Of a stretch of DNA of 52,994 nt, positions 9,470 to 47,135 are shown one piece after another; the first letter of the stretch is position 1, and the number at the start of each line of letters is the position of its first letter. This stretch comes from Oligoflexales bacterium (GTDB lineage: Bacteria; Bdellovibrionota_B; Oligoflexia; Oligoflexales; Bog-1112): contig JABSRF010000004.1 in assembly GCA_013215275.1 (NCBI GenBank), forward strand, positions 1-52,994. The letters run 5' to 3'. The position numbers were made by a program, and so were the translations under genes. Below the pieces are notes generated by a model that saw nothing but the letters and a program-made list of their open reading frames with translations, was not told the origin of the DNA and did no database searches.

Positions 9470-9515
9470 GTATCTCCAAAAGTCACTTGCTTAATTTAAA
9501 CCTTAAAACAAAGGA

Positions 9516-9575
9516 TGAAAAGGGGGGTAGGTGCACTTTTTGGCACGTTTGGCACAAACCGGACAGTTTCTTAAA
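9516..9575 (-). promoter_or_regulatory. repeated late-operon upstream element, copy 1
   Basis: 60 bp, 57/60 identical to 21079-21138; contains TTTTTGGCACGTTTGGCACA; lies upstream of gp45. Confidence 0.75.
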
Positions 9576-21013: not shown

Positions 21014-21078
21014 TTATGCCTCTGACTTAGGAGAAAATTATGTTATGCAGGTAACAATTTAATACTTTAAATAAAGCT

Positions 21079-21138
21079 TGAAAAGGGGGGTAGGTGCAGT
21101 TTTTGGCACGTTTGGCACAAACCGGACAAATTCTTAAA
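21079..21138 (-). promoter_or_regulatory. repeated late-operon upstream element, copy 2
   Basis: 57/60 identical to 9516-9575; lies upstream of gpW. Confidence 0.75.
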
Positions 21139-30047: not shown

Positions 30048-30733
30048 TCCCTTTCCCTCTCAATCTGCTTAACCAAGCTGTTATATTCATCTTCGTCTTC
30101 TGGATTAATGAGGGTGTTAACGTCATCACTGAATCGTGAAAGTTGGTCCATTCTCTTATTCAAGACTTCCCGATTGCAGTTAAGCCTATCTAGTGCCGAT
30201 AACATGGAATCAATATTTCCTTTGGTGATTCTTGCTAGTTTTTGCAGGTAATATTCTTGATAAACCTCATCATCCTTTTTGGGCTGCTTGATAAGCTCTC
30301 TTTTGACTTTGTAGGTTGTATCGTGAAATAGACTGCTTTTTTCTGCTACGATTTCCTTAAAGACAATATTATTTCGCCTGGTGATCTTTGGTTGGGTGAG
30401 GATATCAATTTTTTGTTTAGCCTCGCCTAGATCCTCTTGGGCCTTCTTCAAAGTAGATTCAGTTTTTTGAAGCACTTCTAAGGAGACTTTCAAGCTATCT
30501 TTGCATTTGATAAGAAAGTCTCGGTAAAGCCACGCTGCCCAATTGTTGTAGGCGCTAACCACGTGGTTTGCCGCAGCAATACTCATTAGGTAACTCTCGA
30601 CTTCTTTATTATCCCGCGAGGTTATGACAAATGTCATTACCTTATGATTTAAGGTGGTTAGATAGTCATTTGAACCTGATCTTTCAAACTTCCTTCTTAA
30701 TTCAGCATGGCGAACCCCAAGGCAATGAGCCAT
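30044..30733 (-). CDS. Rha/antirepressor-like regulatory protein
   Basis: A..LG..HA.L.R...ESY.M...A...V...N.....Y..FLI N-terminal domain plus coiled coil; the frame stays open upstream to ~30950. Confidence 0.55.
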   Translation of the reverse strand: MAHCLGVRHAELRRKFERSGSNDYLTTLNHKVMTFVITSRDNKEVESYLMSIAAANHVVSAYNNWAAWLYRDFLIKCKDSLKVSLEVLQKTESTLKKAQEDLGEAKQKIDILTQPKITRRNNIVFKEIVAEKSSLFHDTTYKVKRELIKQPKKDDEVYQEYYLQKLARITKGNIDSMLSALDRLNCNREVLNKRMDQLSRFSDDVNTLINPEDEDEYNSLVKQIERERE

Positions 30734-32970: not shown

Positions 32971-33046
32971 TATCTACCTCCTTTTGGACGTGCTGTAATC
33001 AGCACAAGATCGCTAAAATCTGGGTAAAGTGATTCCATAGTCCCTC

Positions 33047-33565
33047 TTAGATTTGATAGCCGAATGAAAGCTCTGCCGTTGGTGTAACTCCCTTGGCTCG
33101 TCCAGAGCCCAAGAGCTCATGATTTTTGACATGTACCTGCGCGAGCCCGCCTGTGAGGCTAGTATTAAAGCCGGAATCCCACACCCAGCGATAGCCCATT
33201 GATACCTCACCTTTGAGGGCATTCGTGTGGGATTTTGAATCACCTTTGATGTCTAGTCTTGAGGCGTGGACTCCAACCAAGGAGATAAAGGAGTCTTCAT
33301 GAAATCCGCCTGGGACATGGCTTAGGCGTAAACCAACACCTTTTGCGCTGCCCTTAACCCCGGTCAATACTGATAGGTCATGGACATAGCCGACGTCAGC
33401 GCCAACCGAAACTGTATCTGAGACGCCCACATCAAACCCGGCTTCTAAGCCATTAAAGACTGCAGCTAAGGGATTTACGCGGAGATTGGTTATAGTATCC
33501 AGAGCATAAACTGATGATGATGTTAAAGCGAAAAGAGATAGTAAAAAAAAGTAAAGATTTTTCAT
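33047..33565 (-). CDS. outer-membrane beta-barrel protein (DUF3575-like)
   Basis: Sec signal ending VYA; alternating beta strands; GYRWVW and C-terminal FGYQI. Confidence 0.8.
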   Translation of the reverse strand: MKNLYFFLLSLFALTSSSVYALDTITNLRVNPLAAVFNGLEAGFDVGVSDTVSVGADVGYVHDLSVLTGVKGSAKGVGLRLSHVPGGFHEDSFISLVGVHASRLDIKGDSKSHTNALKGEVSMGYRWVWDSGFNTSLTGGLAQVHVKNHELLGSGRAKGVTPTAELSFGYQI

Positions 33566-33700
33566 TTAAGTAATTCCATAAGTAAAAAGGTTCAAAAAAG
33601 GTTAAAGGTCGTTTGGTTATTTAGTAGCTATTTCATGACTCTCTCCTTATTGAGTGCGTTTAAACAGTCTGGAGTGAGAGCGTTTAAACGTTGTGAGTTA

Positions 33701-34312
33701 TTAACCAAGCACCATTTCCTGGTGGCAAAGACCACACAAAGGTGCTGCAATATCTAGGGTTTTCTTGGAAATTCTTGCTATATATTCGGGATGGTCATTT
33801 CTGCAAACCATCTTTAGTTGCCTAGTGCTCTGCTTTTTTTCTTCCTCTGGTTTAGATAATGAAGCATGGGGGTACTCACCTATTACCTGGGCGTACTCTT
33901 TGATGTAGTTGGTTAAATCCTCTCCAGCGTAGGTTGCAGTTAATTTCCCCTCTAAGCCTATTGCTCGGGCACATTTTCCAAAGGTAGCGTTATGACCGTT
34001 TTCAATGCCTACAATTACATGAACAAGCTCATGAGCAAGCACATCTGCTGCACGAACTGACTCAGAGACTACGTGGCTTATCATGATTTCAAAGGTGCAA
34101 TCGTCGGAAGCATCACAAGACCAACATTCACCTAGCACCTGATTTTTCGCAAAGGCACCTTTAGATGGTAATGAGCAGGAGAATCTTATTTTCTCGGGGA
34201 TATCCTCATACCCACTGCTTTTAAAGCGTTTGTAAAGATGTTGAGCCATCTCGTTTAACCACTTCTCTCGATTCATTAACTGCTCCTTTAATTGGGTGGG
34301 CACAAGGCCCAC
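33701..34312 (-). CDS. SprT-like zinc metalloprotease
   Basis: LAHELVH (HExxH), GH...F, C-terminal Cys cluster; likely start MNREKW. Confidence 0.82.
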   Translation of the reverse strand: MGLVPTQLKEQLMNREKWLNEMAQHLYKRFKSSGYEDIPEKIRFSCSLPSKGAFAKNQVLGECWSCDASDDCTFEIMISHVVSESVRAADVLAHELVHVIVGIENGHNATFGKCARAIGLEGKLTATYAGEDLTNYIKEYAQVIGEYPHASLSKPEEEKKQSTRQLKMVCRNDHPEYIARISKKTLDIAAPLCGLCHQEMVLG

Positions 34313-34433
34313 CGCTTAGGACGACACACAAATAAAGGCAATGCTATGAAGCAAGTCTCTTACTGGTGTGGTGAAGATAGCTAGGGGAGTTGCGGCGGGA
34401 TATGAAAAGCCGGAAATTCCGGCTCTAAATTTG

Positions 34434-34817
34434 TAAGCTGTTGATATAATGGAATGTACCCAGTGTACCCAACGAAATATAGGATGGGCACACTTTTTGG
34501 GTACACTTTTTTATCAGTTTAATTAGTTAGTTAGATACTCTAAATTCTATTTGTACCCAGTGTACCCAAGAAATAAAAAGATATAGATATATAGAGATAT
34601 AAATAAAAATAAAAAAATATATCTGACTGTGGATGTATTTTATTTTTTTTATTTTCCCCTATCCCTATATATATTTCTTTTTCAGAAAAAGTGGGTACAT
34701 TGGGTACACTTCGAGATTTAAGCTTTAAGCACCTATAATATTGGAAAATATTTGTACCCAAAAAGTGTGCCCAACCCAAAATCAGGGTGGGTACAGTGGG
34801 TACATTTTTGGGTACAC
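34434..34817. repeat. iteron-type lytic replication origin
   Basis: About 11 TGTACCCA copies (direct and inverted) plus 2 TGTGCCCA variants around a central AT-rich block (34570-34690); IHF-like TAAGCTGTTGATA at 34434; immediately downstream of the primase-helicase. Confidence 0.82.
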
Positions 34818-34826
34818 TTGGAGAAA

Positions 34827-37586
34827 TTAGCTAGATATGGGGATTAGTTTGAGGCATTCAGCTTCAATTGTGCGGAATTTGCCATCGAGGACAATGACTT
34901 TCAGGTTGGGGTTGGACTTTAATTGCTTGCTGATACCAACGATAGCATCACGCTCAATCTTATCTTTGTGCTGGAAAATGTTATTTATAACTTCAACTTG
35001 AGTACCTGCAGGGAACACATCGGTGCCATATTGAGCTTCATCCTTAAGCGACCAAACTTTTGGCGGCTCACATTCTTCACGGTTTAAGATTAAATCAACT
35101 GGAATATACACGCTCTTGTCCAGTATTCCTGAGATCCTAATGGATTGCCGCTTTAAGGCCCCTTTGAGTCTTCCAAGGGAGTGATTCCAGTTTTTCCAAT
35201 GGGATTTTTCAAAAATTTTTGCAAGCTCCACATGCTTGCTGAATACAGCTAGGTACTCCTTCCCTTCTTTTTGATGGACCTTCATACCATACTTCTCCAG
35301 CTCCTTTTTGTGTGGTCCTTGCAGGATATTGACAATTGTATCCTCAAGGTGGCTAACTTGATCGCCAAAATCGCGTGTGTACCTTATCTTAGTGGTTAAT
35401 AGATGGTTTAAACATAATTCTTCATCCCGCTCAGTCTTGGAGAGATCCTTATCTGTAAGGCATTTCATCATCAAACATAGGTTTCTGGCAGCATCTTCCG
35501 TTGGAGGTTGATCCGATGTAAGACTAAAGTAGCTAGCTAATAACATTCCGGTTTGGTCTGCATAGCGTGAGGTATGCCCCATCTGTAAGATAACTTTCTT
35601 AAAGACTCTGTATCCCTCATTAATATTGTCAATTTGCTGGATAGCTCTTGCAAAAAGCCTAAGACCAAACTCGGGAGTGATTTTTTCGCAGGCAGCTAAA
35701 AGGTTAGCTTCATGAATTGGATCTGAGTTGTGACGTGCAAGTTCAAGTATGGAAAAGCGGCCCTTATCCTGAGCGCTTTTGAGGTGAACCTTGATCGAGC
35801 ATACTAAAGCAGTGACTTGGGGATCATAGTTTAATGCTGTACCACTTGTGGTTCCTTTATACATACGGGCGCTTGTAGGGCTCCATGATTGCCTCAGAAA
35901 CTCTATAATGCCTTGCTGGATATAGTTGTTAGATTCCGTCTCAAATTCATCGTATATGACCGGCAAAGAGTCACCTTGTAGGGTTTGCCTGATACCAGCA
36001 GCAGTGGTATCTTGTCCTGCTTTCATGAACCCATCTTCACCACCTAATGCGGGGGTCAATACATCGTTAAACAAAAGCGATTTTCCACACCCCTCACTGG
36101 CTGTAACCCATAGCCTGGGTCTTATAGGTAGCGCTCCTGATACTCTTGCAGTTGCAACCCATCCTAAGAACAAGGGGATTGAGTCGTAACACTCCCAAGA
36201 AAAGTGTTTGATAGCCATGATGAGAAGCTTGCATTCCTCCACTGTTAACGGTGTTGGTGGCTCTGGAAACGAAAACTGTGAAGCTGTGTAGGTGTAAGTT
36301 GAGTGGATGTCTGACATATCCTTCATGGTCCCATCCACTATGAGTTTTGAGCCTGTGTTCACTACCGTTGCTTTTTTATCCTTCCAGACACCAACACCTC
36401 TGACTTTGTGGGGTGAAAAGATCCCAGCATCCATAGACTCAGAAATGATCTGTGCTTTTGCTTGGTCCCAATAGACGCCACCGTCTGGTTTAGGGAACAT
36501 GACTTCTAGCTCATCAAGGGGAAAGGGTATTAATTCACATACGTTGCTGTTACTTACAGAGCGAGTTTTTTGTATTGTGTGATTCTTATAGCTATAGAAA
36601 TAATGGTAAGGACCATTTTGCCCAAGAGCCCTGTATGTGATTTTCTCGCCATCTTCTAAGCAAAGCTGGTCCTTTACCTCATCGAGCCCTTCTCTAACAT
36701 GAAGGTCGTTAAAATCGGTGGTAGCTTTTCCATCGTATTCCATAAATACGGGAAAAACCGGCTTGTTCATAAAGAGCTTAGATGCTTTTATAGCCTCGGT
36801 TTTGCCTGGGTTTCCTTCTGTAGCATGGTCATCATCACCAGCGACAACGAAGTTGACCTTGGGATACTCTTTCTTAAGAAGCTTTGAGACTTCCACAAGG
36901 TTATGTTTGGTGAAGGTCGCAACCACCACATTGCCTGTAGCTAGTCTAAGGCTTGCGCCCGTAGCCCATCCTTCGCAAATATAAACAACCTTTGATGGGT
37001 TAGTTAAATGACCGAATGTGTATATGCTACCAGTAAGCACAGTACCTAGGATCTGGTACTTACCGCCATCGGCAGAGATCCTTTGGCCACCCATGATTGA
37101 GCCTTTTATGGATCGGAACGGGATAAATAGCTTGTCACCGTCCATACAAAGGTCGAACGGCTCGATTAACTTTCGCTTTAAATAAGGATGGTCAGCGTTA
37201 GCCTTAGTCCCACGATCCAAGATCTTTTTAGCAGTCATCCTTGCTTCTTCGTTCAGCTTTTTCTTAGATTCATCGGCAACTTTCTTCGCTTTTTTCTGAG
37301 CGAACTTAATGTCTTCTTTCTCATTCCGGGAAAGCTTAACCTCTGGAGTAAAGGTATACTTTTCTTCATCACTGCTAGCCCAATCACCGAAGGTAACACA
37401 AAGGTATAACAAGCCTTTGGAGGTGGTTAGGTAGCTACCAATATACCAAGCTGAATTTCTGGACAAACCCTCACAACGTCTCAATTTTCCGTCCAAAATT
37501 GGATCATAGATGCTTACATCCCTAGAGGCTGCAAAGCGGATAAACTCTTCACGGAGGTCGTATTCGGTTCTCATATCTTCGCTCAT
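34827..37586 (-). CDS. TOPRIM primase - helicase fusion (TraC/P4 alpha-like)
   Basis: HPYL.RK, ICEGWATG, AGDDD, DFNDL primase motifs; GCGKS Walker A and IYDEFE Walker B. Confidence 0.92.
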   Translation of the reverse strand: MSEDMRTEYDLREEFIRFAASRDVSIYDPILDGKLRRCEGLSRNSAWYIGSYLTTSKGLLYLCVTFGDWASSDEEKYTFTPEVKLSRNEKEDIKFAQKKAKKVADESKKKLNEEARMTAKKILDRGTKANADHPYLKRKLIEPFDLCMDGDKLFIPFRSIKGSIMGGQRISADGGKYQILGTVLTGSIYTFGHLTNPSKVVYICEGWATGASLRLATGNVVVATFTKHNLVEVSKLLKKEYPKVNFVVAGDDDHATEGNPGKTEAIKASKLFMNKPVFPVFMEYDGKATTDFNDLHVREGLDEVKDQLCLEDGEKITYRALGQNGPYHYFYSYKNHTIQKTRSVSNSNVCELIPFPLDELEVMFPKPDGGVYWDQAKAQIISESMDAGIFSPHKVRGVGVWKDKKATVVNTGSKLIVDGTMKDMSDIHSTYTYTASQFSFPEPPTPLTVEECKLLIMAIKHFSWECYDSIPLFLGWVATARVSGALPIRPRLWVTASEGCGKSLLFNDVLTPALGGEDGFMKAGQDTTAAGIRQTLQGDSLPVIYDEFETESNNYIQQGIIEFLRQSWSPTSARMYKGTTSGTALNYDPQVTALVCSIKVHLKSAQDKGRFSILELARHNSDPIHEANLLAACEKITPEFGLRLFARAIQQIDNINEGYRVFKKVILQMGHTSRYADQTGMLLASYFSLTSDQPPTEDAARNLCLMMKCLTDKDLSKTERDEELCLNHLLTTKIRYTRDFGDQVSHLEDTIVNILQGPHKKELEKYGMKVHQKEGKEYLAVFSKHVELAKIFEKSHWKNWNHSLGRLKGALKRQSIRISGILDKSVYIPVDLILNREECEPPKVWSLKDEAQYGTDVFPAGTQVEVINNIFQHKDKIERDAIVGISKQLKSNPNLKVIVLDGKFRTIEAECLKLIPISS

Positions 37587-39094
37587 AGTGGACTTACCTC
37601 CGGTGCATAAATCTCATAAATATTGGATAGGTTTTTGTACGGGCAATAACGCTTGGCAATGGACTTGCCATACTCTTCTTCAAGTTTCCTAAAGACGAAT
37701 CCGGTTTTATAGTTTCTCATTTTGCCGATCTTAGCCCATTTGCGGCATGATGCTAGAACGAGATTGGAATTAATTTCCATCATCTCGGACTCTTCTTTTT
37801 CCTCTTCAGGATCATCCTTTGGTGGAACTGGGTCTGGCTCGGGGAATTCATGACCACAGCCAGGACAAGTGCGATCTCTAGACATACGGAAACAGAGGTT
37901 GCAGGAGGGGCATTCGGTCAAACCAAACTCATCATCCTTTTCCTCTTTAGGGGTGGGTTCGAAGTAAGCCTCTGGTGCGTCTTCCACCAGACCGTGTTCT
38001 TTAAGGCATTGAGCGAAGTCTAACACCTTGCAGTGCTTCTTTTCGTAGCCATCTTTAGAATATGGTCTAGTCCCTCGGCCAACCATTTGATGAAATAAAA
38101 TCAATGATTTAGTAGGCCTACAGAGTAAAATCATTTCAATTGCTGGACGATCGAGGCCGGTGGTGCAGGTATCCACATTAAAGACAACTCGGAGCTCACC
38201 GCTCATAAGGCGGTCGAGGATTTTGTTTCGCTCCTTCATGGACTTGGTGTGATCGATGTAATCTGCAGGGATGTCATTATCGGTGAAAAATGCTGCCATA
38301 GCTTTGGCATGAGCTATAGAAACACAAAAAGCCAGAGCGGGCTTGCCTTCATCATGTTTGTGAAAGTCTTCTAGTATCTCACTAAAAATTTCCTTCTTAT
38401 TTATGGCAAGCTCAACATCCTCGGCAACATAGTCATCACTTTTTTTATCCACCCTCAGCTTTGAGGTATCAATCTTAACCAGCACATAATAGCGAGGATG
38501 GATAAGGAAGCCCAACTGGGCTAGTTGGTCAAACTTGATAGGCCATTCGACGCGATCAAAAACATCATCAAAGCCCCTCTTTAAATAAGGGGTAGCTGTG
38601 AAACCGGCTTTTGGGCAGTCATAGCTATTGTATAGCTCGACGCAATTGTCGCTCATGATCCGATGGATTTCATCCATGATAATGAGATCAGCTTTAGGCT
38701 TATGCTTGCGTCTAACAAGGGTATCTATGGAGCATAATTGGACCTTAGCCTTACGATTTGTCAGCTTATGCTTCGCCTGGATGACTCCAAATTTAATATC
38801 AAACCTTTGCAAGTGCTCCGCAAATTGCTCGATTAGTTGGATACCGTGGATGACAATCATCACACGAAGGCCAAGAACCTCAGCAACAAACTTAACAAGG
38901 TAAGCCATAATGATGGACTTGCCTCCGCCCGTAGCGAGGTGAATAAGGGTGGAGTTCCATTGCCTCAAGAAATTTAGGATGAGCTCCGTTTGGTAAGGTC
39001 GAGGCTTAGCAAAAGGTAGCTCAATAGCTCTGAGTTTATCCCGATTGGGATCTTGCCTAACTAGCTGCATTAATATCCTCCCATCCCAGAGCAA
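37583..39094 (-). CDS. SF2 DEAD/DEAH-box helicase (YejH/RadD-like)
   Basis: RPYQ, ATGGGKS, DEIH, TATP, QMVGRGTR motifs; C-terminal CPSC...CPGC. Confidence 0.94.
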   Translation of the reverse strand: MLWDGRILMQLVRQDPNRDKLRAIELPFAKPRPYQTELILNFLRQWNSTLIHLATGGGKSIIMAYLVKFVAEVLGLRVMIVIHGIQLIEQFAEHLQRFDIKFGVIQAKHKLTNRKAKVQLCSIDTLVRRKHKPKADLIIMDEIHRIMSDNCVELYNSYDCPKAGFTATPYLKRGFDDVFDRVEWPIKFDQLAQLGFLIHPRYYVLVKIDTSKLRVDKKSDDYVAEDVELAINKKEIFSEILEDFHKHDEGKPALAFCVSIAHAKAMAAFFTDNDIPADYIDHTKSMKERNKILDRLMSGELRVVFNVDTCTTGLDRPAIEMILLCRPTKSLILFHQMVGRGTRPYSKDGYEKKHCKVLDFAQCLKEHGLVEDAPEAYFEPTPKEEKDDEFGLTECPSCNLCFRMSRDRTCPGCGHEFPEPDPVPPKDDPEEEKEESEMMEINSNLVLASCRKWAKIGKMRNYKTGFVFRKLEEEYGKSIAKRYCPYKNLSNIYEIYAPEVSPL

Positions 39095-39332
39095 CCAATG
39101 TGCTAATTATTTTTTTCCTGGTTTTAGGTTGAGGGTTCGCTACTAAAGGAAGATCTTTGCGAGTTGAGGCAGGAATCCCAGCTTTTTTACATACCGTATT
39201 GGCATCTTTGCCAACCTGACTTGCTGCAACCTGGAGTTGTTCCCAAAAAGTTACATTTGAAAGCATAAAAGCAATCCTTTCCGTGTGAGGTTCTGCTAAA
39301 AGTGTGGTCCTGCTTTTTATGTAGCCCTGCAA
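39057..39332 (-). CDS. small Cro-like HTH protein
   Basis: VCKKAGIPAST helix-turn-helix-like segment; overlaps the helicase start. Confidence 0.45.
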   Translation of the reverse strand: MQGYIKSRTTLLAEPHTERIAFMLSNVTFWEQLQVAASQVGKDANTVCKKAGIPASTRKDLPLVANPQPKTRKKIISTLVALGWEDINAAS

Positions 39333-39420
39333 GTGTGTGAAACCTGCGGTTATAAGGTAAAGCGGTAGCTAGGCACTGTTTAAACAGGCTCATTTGTGGT
39401 GCTAACGCTTAGGGATTAAA

Positions 39421-39858
39421 CTAGAGTTTCATTAGTTTTCTAGCGGTACTATCAAGATCCCACCTAATATTCATAGGGCCCTGATGAACCTTTCCTTTAA
39501 CTTCAGTGGTCATGAAGTTTACTTTAGATAGCAACTTCCCATCTTTCGTCGGCTCCCACCCCTTGCTGGATTTAGTCTGCAAGCCATGAGCAGCTAGGAG
39601 CTTATTTACATCCCTTGCAGCAAGACTAGATGTTGAATACCCTTTCTGTTGCAAGGTAATACCCAATTGAGTGGGAGTTCCAAATTCTTCTTCTTTTTTA
39701 TTAGTAGTATCGATATTATGTGATGGTTGTACTGAAACGTCTGTGTGACTTTTTATATATGCCATTGCAAGAGCATCGGCTTTGTCCTCAGAGAACCCTA
39801 CTCTTAAAGCGTCACTCTTGATCCCGATTGCTTGTTGAGCTATTGAGCTAAACTTCAT
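39421..39858 (-). CDS. antirepressor C-terminal (KilAC-like) domain protein
   Basis: TPTQLG...A..VNKLL...GLQ.K...WEPT..GK motif; first gene of the leftward early operon. Confidence 0.7.
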   Translation of the reverse strand: MKFSSIAQQAIGIKSDALRVGFSEDKADALAMAYIKSHTDVSVQPSHNIDTTNKKEEEFGTPTQLGITLQQKGYSTSSLAARDVNKLLAAHGLQTKSSKGWEPTKDGKLLSKVNFMTTEVKGKVHQGPMNIRWDLDSTARKLMKL

Positions 39859-40044
39859 TTTTTACCCTCTCGTCCTAAGTCGTTAAAAAAATCCTTTAGA
39901 TCTCGATATGGTAAAAAAATGTATGAAATACTTTCTTGCAAAACAAGTCAAAAAATATACATAAAAATGTGTCAAAGCCTTGGTGAGGGTACTATTTGTA
40001 TAAAACACCCAACTTTCATACAGAAAAAATGAGGGCGTTAAAAA

Positions 40045-40518
40045 ATGAACCAGGAATACAAAAAAATTGTACAAAATCAATTGAGACAATTCTTAAGAGC
40101 CTACCGTCATGCTGAAAACATCAGCGCAGAAGATGCAGCTTGCAAACTTGACCTGGAAATAACTAGTTATCGAAAGCTAGAAGGTCTCAAGCCTGAAAAT
40201 AGAGTAATAAGCAGCATCAGCTACCTAGAAAAGATTGCAAAACTAAGGGCTAAATCTCTCGTTGATTTCATCTCTTTCTTAACCCCTCAAGATTTGGTGA
40301 ATGGTTTAGGTAGAGGCTTATACCTATGGGAAAAAAATATTATTTCTGGCTTTGAAAAAATGAGTGTATCTAAGCGGAATAAATTTCTTAACTATCTCAG
40401 CAAGCTAGAGGAAGATGAGCTAGCTGATTTTTATGACCACTTAGTTGAAATGTCTAAAAAGCGATCTTCAAAAATTTCTTTCACAACTCGCATATTAAGG
40501 GAGCTAAAGGATGACTAG
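40045..40518 (+). CDS. XRE-family HTH regulator in repressor position
   Basis: LR.YR....IS.EDAA.KL......YRKLE HTH; divergent from the early lytic operon. Confidence 0.75.
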   Translation: MNQEYKKIVQNQLRQFLRAYRHAENISAEDAACKLDLEITSYRKLEGLKPENRVISSISYLEKIAKLRAKSLVDFISFLTPQDLVNGLGRGLYLWEKNIISGFEKMSVSKRNKFLNYLSKLEEDELADFYDHLVEMSKKRSSKISFTTRILRELKDD

Positions 40519-40873
40519 AGTATTGGTAATCGAAGATGATCCACATTTTGGTGACACTCTTAAAATGAAATTGGAGATGGATGAAGGTGTAAAGGTTGAC
40601 GTTTACAGAGATTTCGAAACGTTCGCGGAAAAAGTCACATCACCACATCAAGTAAAAGAATACTCATGTGCTCTAGTCGACTACCAATTTGGTCGCTACA
40701 ACGCTTATCATAAAGGGTCAGCAATCTATCTACGAGAAGACCTTCAGTTTAAAGGAAAAATTTACCTGTGGACGCTAGAAAAACTTGAAGATGTAAAAGG
40801 AAAAGAGGACTACGACGCAATACTTCCCAAAAAATTCTATTCATTTTCCGCTCTTGAGAGGTTTGACAGTTAA
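40511..40873 (+). CDS. stand-alone response regulator receiver
   Basis: VLVIEDD, LVD phosphoacceptor, LWT, LPK; overlaps the HTH gene by 8 nt. Confidence 0.85.
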   Translation: MTRVLVIEDDPHFGDTLKMKLEMDEGVKVDVYRDFETFAEKVTSPHQVKEYSCALVDYQFGRYNAYHKGSAIYLREDLQFKGKIYLWTLEKLEDVKGKEDYDAILPKKFYSFSALERFDS

Positions 40874-40875
40874 AA

Positions 40876-42678
40876 ATGAAATTCCTGCTTGTGCTCATTT
40901 TTTTGATTTTCTCTACTAGTAGCTTTGGCGTAACAATCACCCAAAAAACGGAGGATTTAAAGCTATCCGATGATCTTAAGATTCATTTAACCTCGGATAA
41001 ATTAGAAATTGAGGATGTTGTAAAACTAAACCCTGGAGAGTTTTCTAAGTACGCGAGTGGTAAGAGCTTAGGGTTCACCCAAAAAGTTCTCTGGGGTAAA
41101 GTGCCAATTAAAAATCGATCAGGTATCGAAGACTGGTTTGTTTCACTTTATGTCAGCCATATCGGGAGTTTCAGACTATATAAAGTGCAAGGCAAAAACA
41201 TAGAACTTGTCGAGCATGTAGGAAGGGATATTGACGCTCGTACTAGAGCTGTTAATCTAAAATATCCTACTATTCCAGTTGCAATTTCTAAAGACTTTGA
41301 TGGGTACTTTTATATACGAGCGGAGTCCGAAAATAACTTGACCATTGACCTTGATTTAAGGCGGATAAATTCTCTAATCACACATATGCATAAGGACGTA
41401 ATTTTCCAAGGAATCTACTATGGCTTTCTTATTGGTCTAATGCTTTATGTTTTGAGTTTATGGATTTTTGCATCCGAGTCACTTTATGGAAGATATGGTC
41501 TCTATCTTTTCGCAATGGCTTTACTACAACTTGCTGTTACCCATGATGGTTCTACCTATTTATGGCCAGGAAAAATTACTTTTGATAAAACTCTTGAGAC
41601 TTTCTCGGGAGGTTTAATTTTCGTCACCATGGGCAACTTTTTAAGAGAGTTTTTTAAGGACTATTTACAAAAAATGCCCTCAGCTATCCCAACTAATGCA
41701 ATCAAAGCTGGTGGAATTGTTTGTCTGATTTCAATACTCTCATCAAATTATGTACTCAACATTGTTGGAACAATAATATTGGTTGCCTGCTTTTTCCCTG
41801 CAGTAACCTGGTTCCTCTTTAAGGCATGGAGATCAGGTATTAAACCAGCACTTTTTATGTGGATCGGCTGGGGTGCAATGTCTCTTGGAATGTACTACCA
41901 GATAGTCATGAAGTCGGGATTTTTTTCTCTTCCATACATATATAATTTCTTCCAAGTTACTTGCATCATTGATTTCATTTTGTTTACCGCATCTATTTCC
42001 CTAAGGATAAGAGACATAAATATAGAATTAGCAGAAAAAAAAAGCTCTTTGCAGCTATCCAAGGGGTTATCAGCTATAAGCGCCGGGATAGCACACGAAG
42101 CTAAAAAACCATTACAGGCCGTTTCCAACGTGCTAGATGAATTATTAGAAATATCTGATACTTCCAACGCCTACCTCAAAAGATTGTTGGATAGTTCTCG
42201 CAATAAACTAAATCATTCTGGAGCTATTTTTGATGATATTCTAAAAATTGGCAAGCCTGACATGAAATTTCAAGAATTGGAGATAAGAAGACTCATTGAG
42301 GATGCTATCAACCTGTCTAAAATTTCGTACACTCCAAAGCTTGAAATAGAAGATTTTTCTTTAAAATGCGACAAAGAAAAAACGATTCGAGCCTTCACCA
42401 TTTTGATCGATAATGCCTTCGAGCATGGTGCCAAAGATGGTGAACCTGTTTTGATTCGAACTTGTGCCAAGAACAAGAAAACTTTAGAGGTAATCAACTA
42501 TGGTGTTTATCTCGAAAAAGATGAAATAAGAACCATTTTTGAACCCTGGGTAACTAAAGGAGGTAATGGCCTAGGTCTTTACCTCTTTAGCTCAATTGTG
42601 AAATCCCATAATTGGGAAAACCGTTGCCATTCGAGTAAAAAGGACAACTTCGTGGCTATGATTTTGACATTCAATTAA
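40876..42678 (+). CDS. 7TM-DISM sensor histidine kinase
   Basis: Signal peptide; DISMED2-like domain (SLGFT..VLW); 7TM region (GIYYG); H-box AHE.KKPL, N-box DNA, F-box IFEPW.TK, G2 GNGLGL. Confidence 0.9.
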   Translation: MKFLLVLIFLIFSTSSFGVTITQKTEDLKLSDDLKIHLTSDKLEIEDVVKLNPGEFSKYASGKSLGFTQKVLWGKVPIKNRSGIEDWFVSLYVSHIGSFRLYKVQGKNIELVEHVGRDIDARTRAVNLKYPTIPVAISKDFDGYFYIRAESENNLTIDLDLRRINSLITHMHKDVIFQGIYYGFLIGLMLYVLSLWIFASESLYGRYGLYLFAMALLQLAVTHDGSTYLWPGKITFDKTLETFSGGLIFVTMGNFLREFFKDYLQKMPSAIPTNAIKAGGIVCLISILSSNYVLNIVGTIILVACFFPAVTWFLFKAWRSGIKPALFMWIGWGAMSLGMYYQIVMKSGFFSLPYIYNFFQVTCIIDFILFTASISLRIRDINIELAEKKSSLQLSKGLSAISAGIAHEAKKPLQAVSNVLDELLEISDTSNAYLKRLLDSSRNKLNHSGAIFDDILKIGKPDMKFQELEIRRLIEDAINLSKISYTPKLEIEDFSLKCDKEKTIRAFTILIDNAFEHGAKDGEPVLIRTCAKNKKTLEVINYGVYLEKDEIRTIFEPWVTKGGNGLGLYLFSSIVKSHNWENRCHSSKKDNFVAMILTFN

Positions 42679-42697
42679 CGATTTTTAGGATATACAG

Positions 42698-43423
42698 ATG
42701 AAAAATAAAACTTTATTTGCTATCTTCTTTACTTTTGTGTTTATTTTCATTGGGGGCTTTTCTTACATGTTTACGGGACGCACATCGACTAATCAAAAGT
42801 TTGTAATTTTAGATTTTGATGGGGTAATTGCCGATTCCTGGCAAATTGCTTTTGAGACTATGAATTCTTATTCTGAGGAGTTTGGTTTTTTGCCAATGTC
42901 ATTCGACGCGGCATCAGACCTAACAACAAAAGAGATATTTAAGGCTTATAATTTGGGTTTTTTCGCTCAGTTTAGGCTAGCTAGTAAAGTAAAGAGTGCT
43001 TTACATGAGAACATGAATAAGATCGATGTTTTCCCAGAATTTTTAGCTATCTGTAAAAGGCTTTCAGAACAGGGTATAGAGGTTGCCATTATAACATCTA
43101 ACTCCAAAGAGAATGTCGATAAGTTTTTTAGTCATAATAAGATTGATTTTATAAAAATAGTTCATAGTACCACATCAATTTTTGGTAAGGATTCCGCGAT
43201 AAAGTCATTTTTAAAAGAGTATGGAGTAAAAAAAGAGAACGCTATTTATGTTGGTGATGAAGTAAGAGACGTCACAGGCGCAAAGAAAGCTGGCATCCCC
43301 GTGATGGCAGTTACTTGGGGGTTCGATCCCCGCGCGAAGCTATTACAAGAGGGGCCAGATTATTTGGTGCATGATTCAAAACACGCGCAAATGATTTTAG
43401 AAAAATACTTTCAACTGAATTAA
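42698..43423 (+). CDS. HAD-superfamily phosphatase with N-terminal membrane anchor
   Basis: DFDGVIAD (I), TSN (II), GK (III), GDEVRD (IV); hydrophobic N-terminus. Confidence 0.92.
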   Translation: MKNKTLFAIFFTFVFIFIGGFSYMFTGRTSTNQKFVILDFDGVIADSWQIAFETMNSYSEEFGFLPMSFDAASDLTTKEIFKAYNLGFFAQFRLASKVKSALHENMNKIDVFPEFLAICKRLSEQGIEVAIITSNSKENVDKFFSHNKIDFIKIVHSTTSIFGKDSAIKSFLKEYGVKKENAIYVGDEVRDVTGAKKAGIPVMAVTWGFDPRAKLLQEGPDYLVHDSKHAQMILEKYFQLN

Positions 43424-43451
43424 AAATACCGTTTATACTGAGAGGATATTT

Positions 43452-44534
43452 ATGTTTAAAATTTTTATTAAATCGTTCACTGCATTTTTTATTTTCTTCT
43501 GTCTTTATACTTCTGCTGATGCGGTTGAGTTTGAGCAAGCTAATAAGTTCATACAGGAATCAATTGATTCAAGTCATGAATTCGGCATCCAATCTTATGC
43601 ATCAGGTGATATTCTGTTCACTAAGCAAATAGAGCTTTCAAAGCTCAGAAATTTTGTTATCAAAGCTACTGGTAAAGACCTTATCAAGTACGATCTAGGT
43701 CCAGAGTCATTTTCATCTCTGATAGCCCTTCGTGTTTTGCATGATGTAGAGCACAAAGAACTGAATGATAAGCTGATAAAGCTTGGTTATACGCTTGCCA
43801 CGGCTGAATCTTTAGAATTGCCCAACAGAATTCATTTCTTTCACAATAACACCGATTTTGCTGCAGACATTGATGCAACATCAATTACTGCAGTTGCCCT
43901 TTATAAATCAGGTTTGATCTCTGATGATGAACTTATTCAATATGCTAAAGAAGTATTGAAAAGCAGACCAGAGGATGGTGATTATAAAGACCTTCTCCAG
44001 GTTTACTGGGAAGATGGAGCCGAGCCCAACCGAGGAATTAAGTTTGATCCGGTAGTAACGGCTAATGCTCTTTATCTTATCAAAACGGCTCAATCACTGG
44101 GGCTTGGTGTAGACGATCGAGTCATTGAAAAAAATATTAATTTCATAGTGAGCCATCTTCAGAGTGGAGAATACAAAAATGGGACAAGGTATTATCCACT
44201 GCCCGAGATATTTCTATATTTTTCATCACTGCTCTGTGATTTTAAGGAATTTTCAAAAGTCTTAAAACCTATGATTTTTGAAGCTATGTCTAGCTACCTT
44301 ACTTCAGAAGTCAGCCCTTTAGAAGCATCCCTCAGAATTTTAGTAGCTAAACAAGTAGATTTGGACGTTGATCTAAAACCACTTTCCCTGAGCCTACGTT
44401 CTTCTTTAACAAATCAAGGGTGGCAAGCTGGGCCATTTTTTAAGCTTGGTAAGAGTTCCATATTTTTTGGATCAAACACAATTACTTCAATATTTGGCCT
44501 TAAGGCAATTTACCTCTTAGATGAAAGAATTTGA
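43452..44534 (+). CDS. class II terpene cyclase beta-domain protein (HAD-like drimane synthase cyclase type) with signal peptide
   Basis: FF...F.ADIDATS (43866-43883; DxDxT variant of DxDD), L.VYW, DPVV.ANAL, Y.NGTRYY..PE.FLY (44181), W....FF..G....FGS...T pattern. Confidence 0.72.
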   Translation: MFKIFIKSFTAFFIFFCLYTSADAVEFEQANKFIQESIDSSHEFGIQSYASGDILFTKQIELSKLRNFVIKATGKDLIKYDLGPESFSSLIALRVLHDVEHKELNDKLIKLGYTLATAESLELPNRIHFFHNNTDFAADIDATSITAVALYKSGLISDDELIQYAKEVLKSRPEDGDYKDLLQVYWEDGAEPNRGIKFDPVVTANALYLIKTAQSLGLGVDDRVIEKNINFIVSHLQSGEYKNGTRYYPLPEIFLYFSSLLCDFKEFSKVLKPMIFEAMSSYLTSEVSPLEASLRILVAKQVDLDVDLKPLSLSLRSSLTNQGWQAGPFFKLGKSSIFFGSNTITSIFGLKAIYLLDERI

Positions 44535-45357
44535 AATGAGACACATTATAATAATAATTTCATTGTTGTTTTCTTCTGCCTCTTTTGCAGATTATCCGCT
44601 AAGTTTTAACAAAGCAGCCCCTCTACTACCTAAGCCTCATGGGAATGGTTATGCAAGTCATAGTTTTGATGATTCAACTAGTATATATGAAATTTCATCA
44701 ACTCATGCTGGCCCACAAGGAAGAATCTTAGATCTAGCATATCGAAACACAAGATTAAATAACGAAGGCCTAGACAAATTTGGTTTAACTCTTGGAGGAG
44801 TTATTCCTAATTCAAACGACGATTTGATAGCTTTTAAATCAATTATAGGTTTTGTTCATAGTAGAGGCTACTACGATCATACAGGGGAAATATTGGCAAC
44901 CTGGGTTAAAAATATAGGATCATATGACATTATTATACTAGGTGGCGGTTACAAATTCGTCTCAACTAAATTCAGTGATGCCTACCCTCTTATCGGTTAT
45001 AGAAGATATGTCAAAGGTAGATATAGTTTTGAAGCCATCCTTCCATCTCATGTTAAAGCAAGTCACGATCTCAATGACACCTTAGAAATTGGAGTTTTTT
45101 CTAATTTAGGTAGTGAACTAGTCTGTGTTGGTGAAAAAGAGATCTCGGACGGTGAATTACCCGATTCGGTTCTGGGCAAGTACCAAACTGTCAGAGTTGG
45201 TATTGAGTCAACTATTAAAGTTGCTGAAAACATAGAGTTTACTGCTAAATTTGGTCAATCCCTAGCTAGAAAGATAACTAAGGACGACAATAAGGTATCA
45301 AAGCTGGATGGTAATCAGAATTTCGCAGAAGTGGCTTTGAACGTATCTAAGTTTTAA
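44521..45357 (+). CDS. outer-membrane beta-barrel protein (DUF6268-like)
   Basis: Signal MRHIII...SFA (likely start 44536); GGGY, YPLIGY, EAILPS strands; terminal Phe. Confidence 0.7.
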   Translation: MKEFEMRHIIIIISLLFSSASFADYPLSFNKAAPLLPKPHGNGYASHSFDDSTSIYEISSTHAGPQGRILDLAYRNTRLNNEGLDKFGLTLGGVIPNSNDDLIAFKSIIGFVHSRGYYDHTGEILATWVKNIGSYDIIILGGGYKFVSTKFSDAYPLIGYRRYVKGRYSFEAILPSHVKASHDLNDTLEIGVFSNLGSELVCVGEKEISDGELPDSVLGKYQTVRVGIESTIKVAENIEFTAKFGQSLARKITKDDNKVSKLDGNQNFAEVALNVSKF

Positions 45358-45412
45358 GCTTCAGATAAACTCAAAGCCCCTTTCTTCCATTGGAGAAGTA
45401 AGTAAAAATTCA

Positions 45413-45970
45413 CTAAACCACATCAATCCCAAACAAAGTGGTAACTCGATCCTTTAGGCAGCCACAGGTTCTATCTCCAATAGATTCGAATAGAGCCTTG
45501 CAAATTATGCACTTGCGAATCTTAACTTCTATCGAATTTAGACCTGCTGCAGCCCTTGCTTCTTGAGTTTCACGAAGGGCAGCCTTATCTGGTTTGGATA
45601 GCTTTTTTATTGGCTGATGTTTTCCCTCTACATGGCTATACTCAGGCATATGAGAGCAAACATACTCCAAGATTCTTCTGCTAATAGCAGTCGCATATGC
45701 GTTTGATTCGTGTGTCTTAAATTCCTTCAAATTTGAGTATTTTTCGGCTGTTTCCTTGAGCTTTTCATCTGTCCATATTCGTTGTTTTGGCCTCACCATA
45801 TGAGAACAAACACTATCTAGAATATTAAGACGACTCGCATATTTATACGCCCCACTTGCCTTATTTTTGAACTCACCTATAGTTGAATACTTCAATGCTT
45901 CGATAGAAACAGCTTCTTTTGTCCATAGAAATTTCTGTTTATGTTGTTTGTTAGTTTCCATTTGCATCAC
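45413..45970 (-). CDS. tandem WT.E-repeat putative DNA-binding protein with C-terminal zinc ribbon (paralog 1)
   Basis: Two WT.E....A.KY...EF....AY..A....L..VCSHM repeats plus KIRKCIIC...TCGC. Confidence 0.75.
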   Translation of the reverse strand: MMQMETNKQHKQKFLWTKEAVSIEALKYSTIGEFKNKASGAYKYASRLNILDSVCSHMVRPKQRIWTDEKLKETAEKYSNLKEFKTHESNAYATAISRRILEYVCSHMPEYSHVEGKHQPIKKLSKPDKAALRETQEARAAAGLNSIEVKIRKCIICKALFESIGDRTCGCLKDRVTTLFGIDVV

Positions 45971-46045
45971 CGAGTCTTATAGGTTTCTAAATTACATTAA
46001 CTCTATAAACAGGTATATTAATCTGATTTTCAGTGATTTTTATGA

Positions 46046-46408
46046 TTAAATATGCTTCTTGACCACTTTCAAAAAATTTTCACTCGTAAACGGTTTCAAG
46101 ATAATCTCTAAAACATTAGTTCCATCTATTGCATCCCGCTTATCAGGGGGAACACCAGTGATTAAAATTAGCTTTGGAGTAATATTTTTTTCATTGAGAA
46201 TATTGAGGAACTTATACCCATCGATATAAGGCATTACAAGATCTAATATTACAAGGTCTGGCTTGTGAAGAAGAAGCAAAGACATTCCATCTTTTCCGTT
46301 ATCCGCAGACATTACGTCATATTCATTTTCCAATAATCCATTCAAAAAATTTAGCATTAATTTGTCGTCATCTATAACTAAAACTGATTTTTTCATACCG
46401 ACTCGCAA
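46046..46408 (-). CDS. stand-alone response regulator receiver (CheY-like)
   Basis: VLVIDDD, PDLVILDLVMP..DG, ITG, KPF. Confidence 0.92.
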   Translation of the reverse strand: MRVGMKKSVLVIDDDKLMLNFLNGLLENEYDVMSADNGKDGMSLLLLHKPDLVILDLVMPYIDGYKFLNILNEKNITPKLILITGVPPDKRDAIDGTNVLEIILKPFTSENFLKVVKKHI

Positions 46409-46568
46409 AAGTTTGAAAGGAGTTGCTAGTCTTCATTATAGAACTTGTTGATTTTTAAGACCAGAGCGATCCAAGAGGCAATTGCGATCAAATCAAACTT
46501 CGGCGGAATTTCCAGTCACACTGATAAAGCAGCCAAACGTTATGAATCGCCGGACTTTGCATCAAAAC

Positions 46569-47135
46569 TCAGATCACATCGAACCCAGTAAGCCTTGCCG
46601 TCGCAACTGATCCGCGAAAACAACCACATGACCTATCGCCAGTTGATTCAAACTCAATTTTGCAGTGCATACATTTTCTTATTTTAATTTCGATAGGCTT
46701 AGCCCCGATATTAATCCTGCTTCTATTAACAGCCTCTAACTCAGTACGAGACAATTTTGATAGCTTCTTAAATGGCTTCTTTCTTGGGTTTTGAAAGGTA
46801 TCCATATGCGAGCAAACTAACTCCAGCATCCCCTTTCTTTTTGCTGCATTATAGGCGTTAGAATCATTTTTTAAGAATTCTTGAGGGGTGCTAAATTGCT
46901 GTGCTACTTCTCTTAACGTATTTTCGTTCCACCTTCGATCTGGTAAAGGTGTTTTATCCATATGCGAGCATATTTTCTCCAGCATTTTATGCTTAGATGC
47001 ATAAGAATAAGCTCCAGAAGAGGATTCTCTAAAATGCCTTTTATGCTGATATTTTTGTGCTTCTTGTGTAACGGTATCTTCAGTCCATGATATTCTTTTT
47101 CTAGGGTGAGTATCCTTTTGCATATTTAAAACCAC
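46569..47135 (-). CDS. tandem WT.E-repeat putative DNA-binding protein with C-terminal zinc ribbon (paralog 2)
   Basis: Same architecture as 45413..45970: two repeats ending CSHM, then KIRKCMHC...SCGC, G.DV end. Confidence 0.75.
   Translation of the reverse strand: MVLNMQKDTHPRKRISWTEDTVTQEAQKYQHKRHFRESSSGAYSYASKHKMLEKICSHMDKTPLPDRRWNENTLREVAQQFSTPQEFLKNDSNAYNAAKRKGMLELVCSHMDTFQNPRKKPFKKLSKLSRTELEAVNRSRINIGAKPIEIKIRKCMHCKIEFESTGDRSCGCFRGSVATARLTGFDVI

Follow-up and report, generated by a model that had tools for sequence, protein, structure and literature searches.

Known single-domain class II cyclases and a phage-borne relative

Class II terpene cyclases built on a single beta domain have been recognised recently, with the merosterolic acid synthase MstE in 2020, the structures of the Aquimarina spongiae drimenol synthase (AsDMS) in 2025 and an enzyme of Sorangium cellulosum in a 2025 preprint. 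Here we describe a relative of these enzymes, a predicted stand-alone terpene cyclase beta domain (TC-beta) of 360 amino acids (aa), which is encoded beside a HAD-IA phosphatase on a phage contig from an Oligoflexales bacterium (GenBank assembly GCA_013215275.1, contig JABSRF010000004.1). The window analysed is this whole 52,994-bp contig, which belongs to a bin of 710 contigs.

The closest characterised system, AsDMS (PDB 9mhs, 9m7d-f), is a bifunctional HAD-TC-beta protein whose TC-beta is homologous to the phage cyclase and has the same fold, and a fused relative (P0099) shares 31% identity with the phage protein over 225 residues. The two systems have in common the DxD acid pair, the tyrosine partner, the diphosphate binders and the aromatic pocket, as well as the association with a HAD-IA phosphatase. 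Unlike in AsDMS, the phage HAD is not fused to the cyclase but is the product of a separate upstream gene, the cyclase motif reads DIDAT rather than DLDTT, the N-terminus is signal-like, and the protein is phage-encoded. Motif I of the HAD also differs, with the canonical DxD in the phage protein and DxG in AsDMS (PNAS paper), and the best trees place the phage cyclase outside the fused clade, although not significantly so by the approximately unbiased (AU) test. The cyclase and phosphatase of AsDMS are reported to cooperate even when physically uncoupled, at an approximately 2.5-fold slower rate.

The mono-beta terpene synthase of S. cellulosum (DxDVT) belongs to the same family, and is likewise a single stand-alone beta domain with a variable fourth motif position. 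As Vo et al. describe in the preprint, it cyclises farnesyl diphosphate (FPP) without Mg2+ to a diphosphate product which needs a phosphatase (bioRxiv 10.1101/2025.09.20.677545). In contrast to that system, the HAD of the phage is encoded 28 nt upstream of the cyclase, and the export signal and phage context of the phage cyclase are features that the consulted sections of the preprint do not describe for the Sorangium enzyme. The Aspergillus oryzae enzyme AstC (DxDTT) makes drimanyl diphosphate, which the discrete clustered HAD phosphatases AstI and AstK, known since 2016, dephosphorylate in trans (PMC5024094). AstC is a sequence relative of the phage cyclase (E 1.1e-7), far weaker than the bacterial relatives, and this system differs in being fungal, in that AstC keeps a HAD-like domain and in that two phosphatases act in turn. 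MstE (PDB 6sbb) shares the single beta domain and DxD acid of the phage cyclase and is its second-best fold match, at 9% identity in the structural alignment; it acts on a prenylated dihydroxybenzoate instead of a diphosphate.

The closest sequence relatives of the phage cyclase form a stand-alone DxDCT clade (clade support 99-100) from Actinomycetota and Myxococcota, for which our searches gave no characterised member, with 33-38% identity in full-length alignment. They share its RGxK loop and have a similar length, but carry Cys at the fourth motif position, lack an N-terminal hydrophobic segment, have no adjacent HAD in the loci seen, and are chromosomal or plasmid-borne in cellular genomes.

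The cyclase is a stand-alone beta domain of the drimenol synthase type

The cyclase and HAD open reading frames (ORFs) are two separate polypeptides on the forward strand, with the HAD ORF ending 28 nt upstream of the cyclase ORF, and no ORF longer than 75 aa lies opposite them. The features on which the assignment depends are:

43452..44534, + strand: 360-aa stand-alone class II terpene cyclase beta domain (phmmer, AlphaFold2, Foldseek and VIA)
43866..43880, + strand: DIDAT motif (D139-T143) with D141 as predicted general acid, aligned with D331-x-D333-T-T of AsDMS
44181..44195, + strand: GTRYY motif (G244-Y248), in which R246/Y247 are predicted to bind the diphosphate and Y248 to partner the acid (AsDMS counterparts R425, Y426 and Y427)
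42698..43423, + strand: 241-aa HAD-IA phosphatase with an N-terminal hydrophobic anchor (Pfam HAD_2, NCBIfam HAD-SF-IA-v1)
42812..42820, + strand: HAD motif I, D39-F-D41 (nucleophile and Asp+2), both Asp invariant in a 30-homologue alignment

A first-pass annotation made from the sequence alone had pointed to this ORF pair and to four motifs in the larger protein, and all four are present in the given order: FAADIDATSI (D139-T143), DPVVTANAL (199-207), GTRYYPLPEIFLY (244-256) and GKSSIFFGS (333-341). Their AsDMS counterparts in the phmmer alignment are DLDTT, DAIVAINVL, GTRYYPAPDVFLF and RSNTYFGS, an agreement which, at the level of sequence, is far beyond chance. The best phmmer matches in the PDB are AsDMS chain 9mhs_B (E 8.3e-24; query residues 134-356 to chain residues 316-525) and 9m7d_A (4e-23), with AstC (22ty_A) following at 1.1e-7. 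Within a 39-sequence family alignment D139, N205, Y247 and Y248 are invariant, and at least 90% of the sequences share D141, G244, R246, F339 and G340. The fourth motif position is Ala in the phage cyclase and most commonly Cys among its relatives; Thr, Val and Asp variants have already been reported.

An AlphaFold2 model of the cyclase with this alignment as input has a mean predicted local distance difference test (pLDDT) score of 92.9 and a predicted template modelling (pTM) score of 0.90. The ten best Foldseek matches of this model are all AsDMS chains (E ~2e-17, TM 0.73-0.75), with other class II cyclases next. In an exhaustive VIA-align structure search of 48,161 chains AsDMS was again best (Z 36.1, root mean square deviation 2.2 over 295 residues, model residues 21-357 against chain residues 227-526), followed by MstE (Z 27.2) and further class II cyclases (Z 21-27). 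With glycoside hydrolases reaching a Z of 20 at most, as opposed to 36.1 for AsDMS, the identity of a glycosidase or of another barrel enzyme could be rejected. Searches of Pfam, NCBIfam and PHROGs with the cyclase gave no family, with AAA_assoc (E 0.15) the sole Pfam match. The fold match over residues 21-357 and the lack of any other Pfam domain identify the protein as a single beta domain, an alpha-helical barrel with neither a gamma nor an alpha domain.

The active site could be mapped residue by residue (AsDMS residues in full-length AsDMS numbering). The acid pair and its partner correspond as D331=D139, D333=D141 and Y427=Y248, and the Mg-independent diphosphate site as Y373=Y185, Y426=Y247, R378=R194, R380=K197, R425=R246, R513=K334 and S514=S335; the equivalence of R378 is alignment-dependent, being R194 by phmmer and G195 by hmmalign. 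The aromatic pocket corresponds as F281=F87, F318=F129, Y319=F130, F328=F136, F509=F330 and F518=F339. Inactive AsDMS mutants given in the Chem Sci 2025 paper are D331A/N, D333N, Y427F, Y373A, Y426A and Y319A, and all residues essential in the AsDMS mutagenesis are kept in the phage cyclase, save for the conservative change of Y319 to F130. Since sequence, predicted fold and active-site map agree, the phage protein is supported as a stand-alone class II cyclase beta domain of the drimenol synthase type, grouping with AsDMS and AstC in the DMS-1/HAD-like TC-beta family, and would be expected to turn over a prenyl diphosphate. The first-pass annotation, which had recognised motifs of the drimenol synthase/AstC cyclase domain, is borne out by both the sequence and the structure searches; the outcome it had named as refuting, a glycoside hydrolase or other non-terpene barrel as best structural match, did not occur.

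A wider family of predominantly stand-alone cyclases

A word-indexed homologue search with the cyclase returned its own 99% cluster only. By contrast, exhaustive HMMER searching of 1.84 billion representative proteins gave 296 relatives at E<=1e-3, of which 137 reach E<=1e-10; the best relative outside the protein's own cluster (99%) is 38% identical. The best 150 of the 296 are mostly proteins of 280-460 aa, i.e. stand-alone, with a minority of HAD fusions of 510-570 aa carrying DxDTT and some proteins of 630-1029 aa. A class I Terpene_syn_C_2 domain occurs in six of the eight long relatives that were scanned. Six long proteins of 629-1029 aa (P0054, P0057, P0061, P0065, P0067 and P0112) have TC-beta fused to a class I terpene synthase, in either order, and represent candidate beta-alpha and alpha-beta bifunctional enzymes without a gamma domain.

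Furthermore, scanning 185,579 species genomes with the back-translated pattern GTRYYPxPxxFL yielded 72 loci, of which 70 contain a family member. Sixteen of these 70 are AsDMS-type HAD fusions (Flavobacteriaceae, Cyclobacteriaceae, Flammeovirgaceae and Paracoccaceae), and the remaining 54 are not, being mostly from Actinomycetota and Myxococcota. In partial 8-kb views of the 70 loci, a polyprenyl synthase gene neighbours the family member in 15 and a P450 gene in four. On account of its fusion partners and neighbouring genes, the TC-beta family is, by context, a terpenoid family.

The upstream neighbour is an intact HAD-IA phosphatase

The first-pass annotation had placed a stand-alone HAD phosphatase beside the cyclase, and this reading holds: the 241-aa protein matches the full model of Pfam HAD_2 (1-178/178; E 2.4e-30, 106 bits against a cut-off of 23.8) and NCBIfam HAD-SF-IA-v1 (30.4 bits, cut-off 23.3), with its motifs intact. 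D39, D41, N135, K164, D187, E188 and D191 are invariant in 30 homologues, and T133/S134 are conserved. Its AlphaFold2 model (pLDDT 89.4) has 3mc1_B as best fold match (Z 22.9), with 2ah5, alnumycin P phosphatase and BT2127 pyrophosphatase (Z 19.3) among further matches, while the pyrophosphatases PpaX and BT2127 also occur among its weaker family matches. The model resembles ordinary HAD-IA phosphatases with a C1-cap fold, and from its sequence and model the upstream neighbour is classed as an intact HAD-IA phosphatase. AsDMS is not among the 50 rows shown of a VIA search with the HAD model, a result which does not exclude similarity. A complex prediction with the mature cyclase and the HAD (score 0.00, mark 0.32) gives no verdict on binding.

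Phylogenetic placement and the origin of the pair

A FastTree phylogeny of 202 domain sequences places the phage cyclase on a long branch, with P0012 as its sister (support 98), within a clade of 78 rows (support 99), most of which are stand-alone DxDCT proteins, and with the fused enzymes outside. The same split is recovered by IQ-TREE from 57 rows, with a support of 100 on both sides in the Shimodaira-Hasegawa-like approximate likelihood ratio test. When the phage cyclase is forced together with the fused clade, the log-likelihood difference is 20.2 and the AU test does not reject the constraint (p 0.209). On the sequence data, placement among the stand-alone forms is therefore preferred but not proven. 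One HAD_2 fusion (P0024) is located inside the stand-alone clade.

The first-pass annotation had called the pair a split drimenol synthase. This description stands in so far as the two activities reside in separate adjacent genes, but as a historical fission of a fused drimenol synthase it is not supported, with the trees favouring the stand-alone clade and the HAD showing no specific relationship to that of AsDMS. As the HAD has no specific similarity to the fused HADs, it appears to have been recruited independently rather than being the broken-off half of a drimenol synthase. Elsewhere in the tree, the stand-alone 311-aa protein P0074 (DLDTT) nests within the clade of HAD-fused drimenol synthases (support 96), which points either to genuine fission or to a gene call cut short.

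Hydrophobic N-termini on both proteins

Beyond what the first-pass annotation had noted, both proteins carry hydrophobic N-termini, with export and anchor signals judged by hydropathy and by eye only:

43452..43523, + strand: signal-peptide-like N-terminus of the cyclase, residues 1-24, ending SADA before VE (read from the sequence)
42713..42775, + strand: hydrophobic N-terminal segment of the HAD, approximately residues 6-26, outside the HAD fold (Kyte-Doolittle 15-aa window 2.57 from residue 6)

The cyclase N-terminus has Lys at positions 3 and 7, a 13-residue hydrophobic core (hydropathy 2.2) and then A-D-A, and it lies outside the fold, which begins at approximately residue 21. Apart from codon 1, which follows GAGAGGA, the first 70 codons contain no ATG/GTG/TTG, so that a downstream start skipping the signal segment could be rejected. 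A hydrophobic segment before the domain is found in only five of 221 family cyclases, and the other four (P0044, P0078, P0033 and P0102) are located elsewhere in the tree. Residues 1-22 of the HAD have a pLDDT under 50 and its fold matches begin at residues 31-33; an alternative start at the internal ATG codon 24, which lacks a clear ribosome site, is possible. The HAD homologue P0153 (52% identity, from a 37.5-kb contig) has a similar hydrophobic segment, P0154 and P0155 begin directly at the catalytic motif without one, and the remaining homologue matches, of 193-231 aa, cover 77-85% of the query. By the positive-inside rule, which is well established and was applied here by eye, the catalytic domains of both the cyclase and the HAD would face the periplasm.

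A six-gene cassette with predicted signalling and envelope genes

The cyclase/HAD pair lies inside a block of six genes on the forward strand (40045-45357), which the first-pass annotation had not described as an operon. The other four members are:

40045..40518, + strand: 157-aa protein, first gene of the cassette, with a weak helix-turn-helix (HTH) signal (Pfam HTH_31 E 0.023, below cut-off)
40511..40873, + strand: 120-aa receiver-like single-domain protein (Pfam Response_reg E 0.0074, below cut-off)
40876..42678, + strand: 600-aa 7TMR-DISM sensor histidine kinase (Pfam matches)
44521..45357, + strand: 278-aa DUF6268 protein with a signal-peptide-like N-terminus (Pfam DUF6268 E 3.2e-5, 23.5 bits against a cut-off of 22.8)

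Intergenic spacing in the ORF listing of the window ranges from -14 to +28 nt, with gaps of 19 and 28 nt, an overlap of 8 nt between the HTH-like and receiver-like genes and one of 14 nt between the cyclase and DUF6268 genes, and AGGA-type ribosome sites precede the cassette genes. The cassette has a guanine-plus-cytosine (GC) content of 0.365, lower than that of the contig arms on either side (0.427 and 0.407). An acidic pair and an 'ALVDY' Asp could be spotted by eye in the translation of the receiver-like protein. The kinase matches 7TMR-DISM_7TM (1.9e-22), 7TMR-DISMED2 (4.5e-11), HATPase_c (1.1e-9) and HisKA (6.3e-4), of which DISMED2 is an extracytoplasmic sensor domain. The DUF6268 protein is a probable outer-membrane beta-barrel; its look-alikes in the ESM Atlas, which serve as a lead only, are outer-membrane barrel clusters, and a word-indexed homologue search returned only the protein itself. 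In an RNA library of the source study (run X4), contigs extend over 27 of the 30 bins, and one of them, of 495 nt, spans the HAD/cyclase junction; the three bins without cover carry no meaning. No tRNA or Rfam family was found.

Beside the cassette, at 45413-47135 on the reverse strand, two paralogous proteins of 185 aa and 188 aa with Cys-rich C-termini belong to phrog_20046, of unknown function. They flank a single-domain response regulator (46046-46408; Response_reg E 1.8e-19), which constitutes a second signalling element next to the cassette.

The contig is a temperate tailed phage

Genes for terminase, portal, head protease/major head protein, sheath, tape measure and baseplate are located at 7-25 kb (PHROG 1e-39 to 1e-184), and a primase and helicase at 35-39 kb, while phage-type genes (phrog_20046) continue to the right of the cassette. 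ParB/ParA genes are present, together with a small tyrosine recombinase (1207-1788; Phage_integrase E 8.3e-19). The contig is thereby identified as a temperate, myovirus-like tailed phage (Caudoviricetes), in agreement with the phage origin proposed in the first-pass annotation, and is perhaps a phage-plasmid. A terminal repeat closing the contig was not found.

Several further features of the phage could be distinguished. A single 702-aa fusion protein (17276-19384, reverse strand; phrog_4523) combines the head maturation protease with the major head protein, and the nearest known-phage match of the major head protein is a Silvanigrella aquatica phage at 30% identity, no more than a hint as to the host lineage. 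The terminase large subunit (22425-25529, reverse strand) is unusually long at 1034 aa; its PHROG matches cover residues 58-245 and 492-1014, and the unmatched stretch of approximately 250 residues between them could be an inserted domain or intein. Upstream of the primase gene, at 34440-34830, dense GGGTACA/TGTACCC repeats and an AT-rich low-complexity tract look like an iteron-type replication origin, and the low-complexity tract probably explains the depth spike seen in all runs in the 34334-35000 bin. An 83-nt direct repeat (9493-9575 and 21056-21138, 89% identical) contains TGGCACG...TTGGCACA, resembling a sigma-54 type -24/-12 element, with baseplate genes on either side of one copy, while the second copy separates the portal gene from a forward-strand ORF. 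A 46-nt repeat centred on the palindrome ATGACAAATGTCAT occurs three times (904-949, 1134-1179 and 30617-30662); two of the copies adjoin the tyrosine recombinase gene, and these repeats are candidate recombinase or operator sites.

No relative of the cyclase was found in PHROGs, in 50,697 phage records or, by pattern scans, in IMG/VR, and literature searches turned up no phage-encoded terpene cyclase. Scans for close relatives gave nothing for the cyclase in IMG/VR and the JGI metagenomes and nothing for the helicase in IMG/VR, and the best helicase match in 60 related genomes is 33% identical. Pieces of the cassette recur unchanged in a marine plankton metagenome and with 1-3% divergence in a biofilm metagenome. 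The cyclase family is rare in the host lineage, occurring in one of the 60 related genomes and in two of a further 130 from the same phylum. Among the 60 genomes P0151 alone is a strong relative; it is 25% identical, with His replacing the general acid and Leu replacing the equivalent of R425. A locus in a genome of the same order (L079, G056:C13, 8194-9219) encodes a 341-aa protein with DIH in place of DxD and without the GTRYY Arg, adjoining two 7TMR-DISM proteins; a TC-beta-like gene thus adjoins a sensor of this family in both elements, but these sensors are dissimilar in sequence to the cassette kinase.

Proposed pathway and alternative explanations

We favour, with moderate confidence, a low-GC accessory operon on the temperate phage of a marine bacterium, in which the TC-beta protein cyclises host FPP and the HAD dephosphorylates the product in trans to a sesquiterpene alcohol. 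The phage contig itself lacks a polyprenyl synthase, two of which are encoded on other contigs of the bin, and the substrate would accordingly come from the host. An all-trans prenyl diphosphate, most likely FPP, may be bound by Y185, R194, K197, R246, Y247 and K334, whereupon D141, backed by D139 and Y248, would protonate the terminal double bond. F87, F129, F130, F136, F330 and F339 would guide cyclisation to a bicyclic drimenyl-type diphosphate without Mg2+, and the adjacent HAD-IA protein (nucleophile D39) would strip the phosphates in trans to leave the sesquiterpene alcohol, a step for which AstI/AstK acting on the product of AstC and the fused HAD of AsDMS are precedents. FPP cyclisation by the Sorangium enzyme on its own and the cooperation of the uncoupled AsDMS activities are further precedents for the mechanism. 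The hydrophobic N-termini may provide co-localisation at or beyond the inner membrane in place of fusion, and the barrel protein may aid the exit of a hydrophobic product. The homology, the fold, the conserved catalytic residues, the operon layout and the phage context are shown by the present data, and we infer the substrate, the product, the coupling to the HAD, the localisation of the enzymes and the regulation of the operon. More tentatively, and with distinctly less confidence than the pathway itself, the cassette may represent the first phage-encoded terpenoid pathway and the first envelope-targeted class II cyclase. The phage would supply a two-component sensor, a mono-beta cyclase that is exported or tethered to the membrane, a tethered HAD phosphatase and an outer-membrane channel, by which a lysogen would make and release a drimane-type sesquiterpenoid on an external cue, or cyclise an envelope isoprenoid lipid.

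Several observations weigh against the proposed pathway. The activity of the cyclase is a prediction; its branch is long, at 1.2-1.5 changes per column, and Ala at the fourth motif position is rare, with 'AT' found in about three of some 200 relatives. RNA-library depth over the cassette is flat and low, as everywhere, and is no proof of transcription, and promoter- or terminator-like sites in a scan of the cassette are not more frequent than in shuffles. Other points concern the HAD, which is of a generic COG0546/HAD-IA type: BLASTP against the fused relative P0099 gives no significant HAD alignment, in the HAD of P0024 only motif I is matched, and only marginally (E 0.014), and AsDMS is absent among the PDB sequence matches of the HAD at E<=1e-3. 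An adjacent HAD is found in none of the 54 non-fused loci elsewhere, and a HAD at a distance of 1.2-1.4 kb in only three of them (six HAD queries, partial 8-kb views). Together with the Sorangium HAD, which the preprint describes as far off in the genome and inactive on the cyclase product (bioRxiv 10.1101/2025.09.20.677545), and with the HAD relative P0153 at 52% identity, when no cyclase relative in the representative library exceeds 38%, these data are also what favours a real cyclase with a HAD that is not its partner. The HAD would then serve the envelope as a general phosphatase, with sugar phosphates, nucleotides or pyrophosphate as its substrates, and the cyclic diphosphate would be used as such or dephosphorylated by host enzymes. 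We regard this as unlikely, given that the two genes lie 28 nt apart in a tight operon, that HAD-cyclase association recurs independently (bacterial drimenol synthases, fungal AstC with AstI/AstK, and P0024), and that both proteins have gained hydrophobic N-termini which are rare in their families.

The N-termini themselves raise a further difficulty, since export, if they direct it, parts both enzymes from cytoplasmic FPP. This tension keeps alive both an envelope version of the pathway and an alternative in which the exported cyclase-like protein and the HAD act on a periplasm-facing isoprenoid or anionic lipid of the envelope, such as a polyprenyl (di)phosphate carrier or a prenylated quinone-type head group, and so remodel the lysogen envelope. 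In keeping with the latter, all three downstream proteins have hydrophobic N-termini, the cyclase lacks an alternative start, the positive-inside pattern points outwards, the kinase upstream has an extracytoplasmic DISMED2 domain, the last gene is barrel-like, and MstE, a mono-beta enzyme related in fold, accepts a head group other than a diphosphate. However, the pocket and diphosphate-binding residues correspond nearly one-for-one with those of the C15-specific AsDMS, and localisation is deduced from sequence, so that we consider action on an envelope lipid improbable; we know of no exported class II cyclase, although no search was aimed at one. Loss or change of catalysis, with the fold retained in a binding protein or hydrolase, is very improbable: relatives of this kind exist, as P0151 illustrates with His for the general acid and Leu for R425, and the long branch is compatible with it, but the phage protein keeps the AsDMS-essential residues apart from Y319 to F130, and its confidently predicted model matches AsDMS far above other barrels. 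Finally, the 710-contig bin, the lower GC of the cassette and the missing terminal repeat could indicate a chimeric contig, or a host island beside a prophage. Against this, the cassette is flanked by phage or plasmid genes, with helicase and primase on its left and the phrog_20046 paralogues and ParB/ParA on its right, one assembled DNA contig, though possibly from the source sample, spans 33000-46412 without mismatch, cassette pieces that are identical or 97-99% identical occur in two other studies, and a 53,087-bp contig carries an identical DUF6268 protein; a cassette that is not phage-borne is thus hardly credible.

Implications for the family and for phage metabolism

Stand-alone beta-domain cyclases and clustered HAD partners are already published. 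The first-pass annotation had also suggested a minimal single-domain class II cyclase, and while the single beta domain is confirmed, it is not new, having been preceded by MstE and the Sorangium enzyme. As far as our searches reach, what is new is a phage-borne relative, a HAD directly adjoining a non-fused member, and predicted export or anchor signals on both enzymes in an operon that also encodes a sensor kinase and a probable outer-membrane protein. The locus bears on how beta-domain cyclases function in the absence of a gamma-domain cap and on why HAD phosphatases are such frequent partners of theirs, and a natural unfused cyclase/HAD operon would allow direct comparison with the fused enzyme as regards substrate hand-over. 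With 336 mature residues and no expected metal requirement, the phage protein is also a compact candidate biocatalyst. If the export signals are real, the source of an isoprenoid substrate outside the cytoplasm becomes a new question. If the proposed pathway is true, it would extend phage auxiliary metabolism to terpenoids, and on the more tentative reading given above lysogenic conversion could occur by means of a terpene, which may serve as an antimicrobial or a signal.

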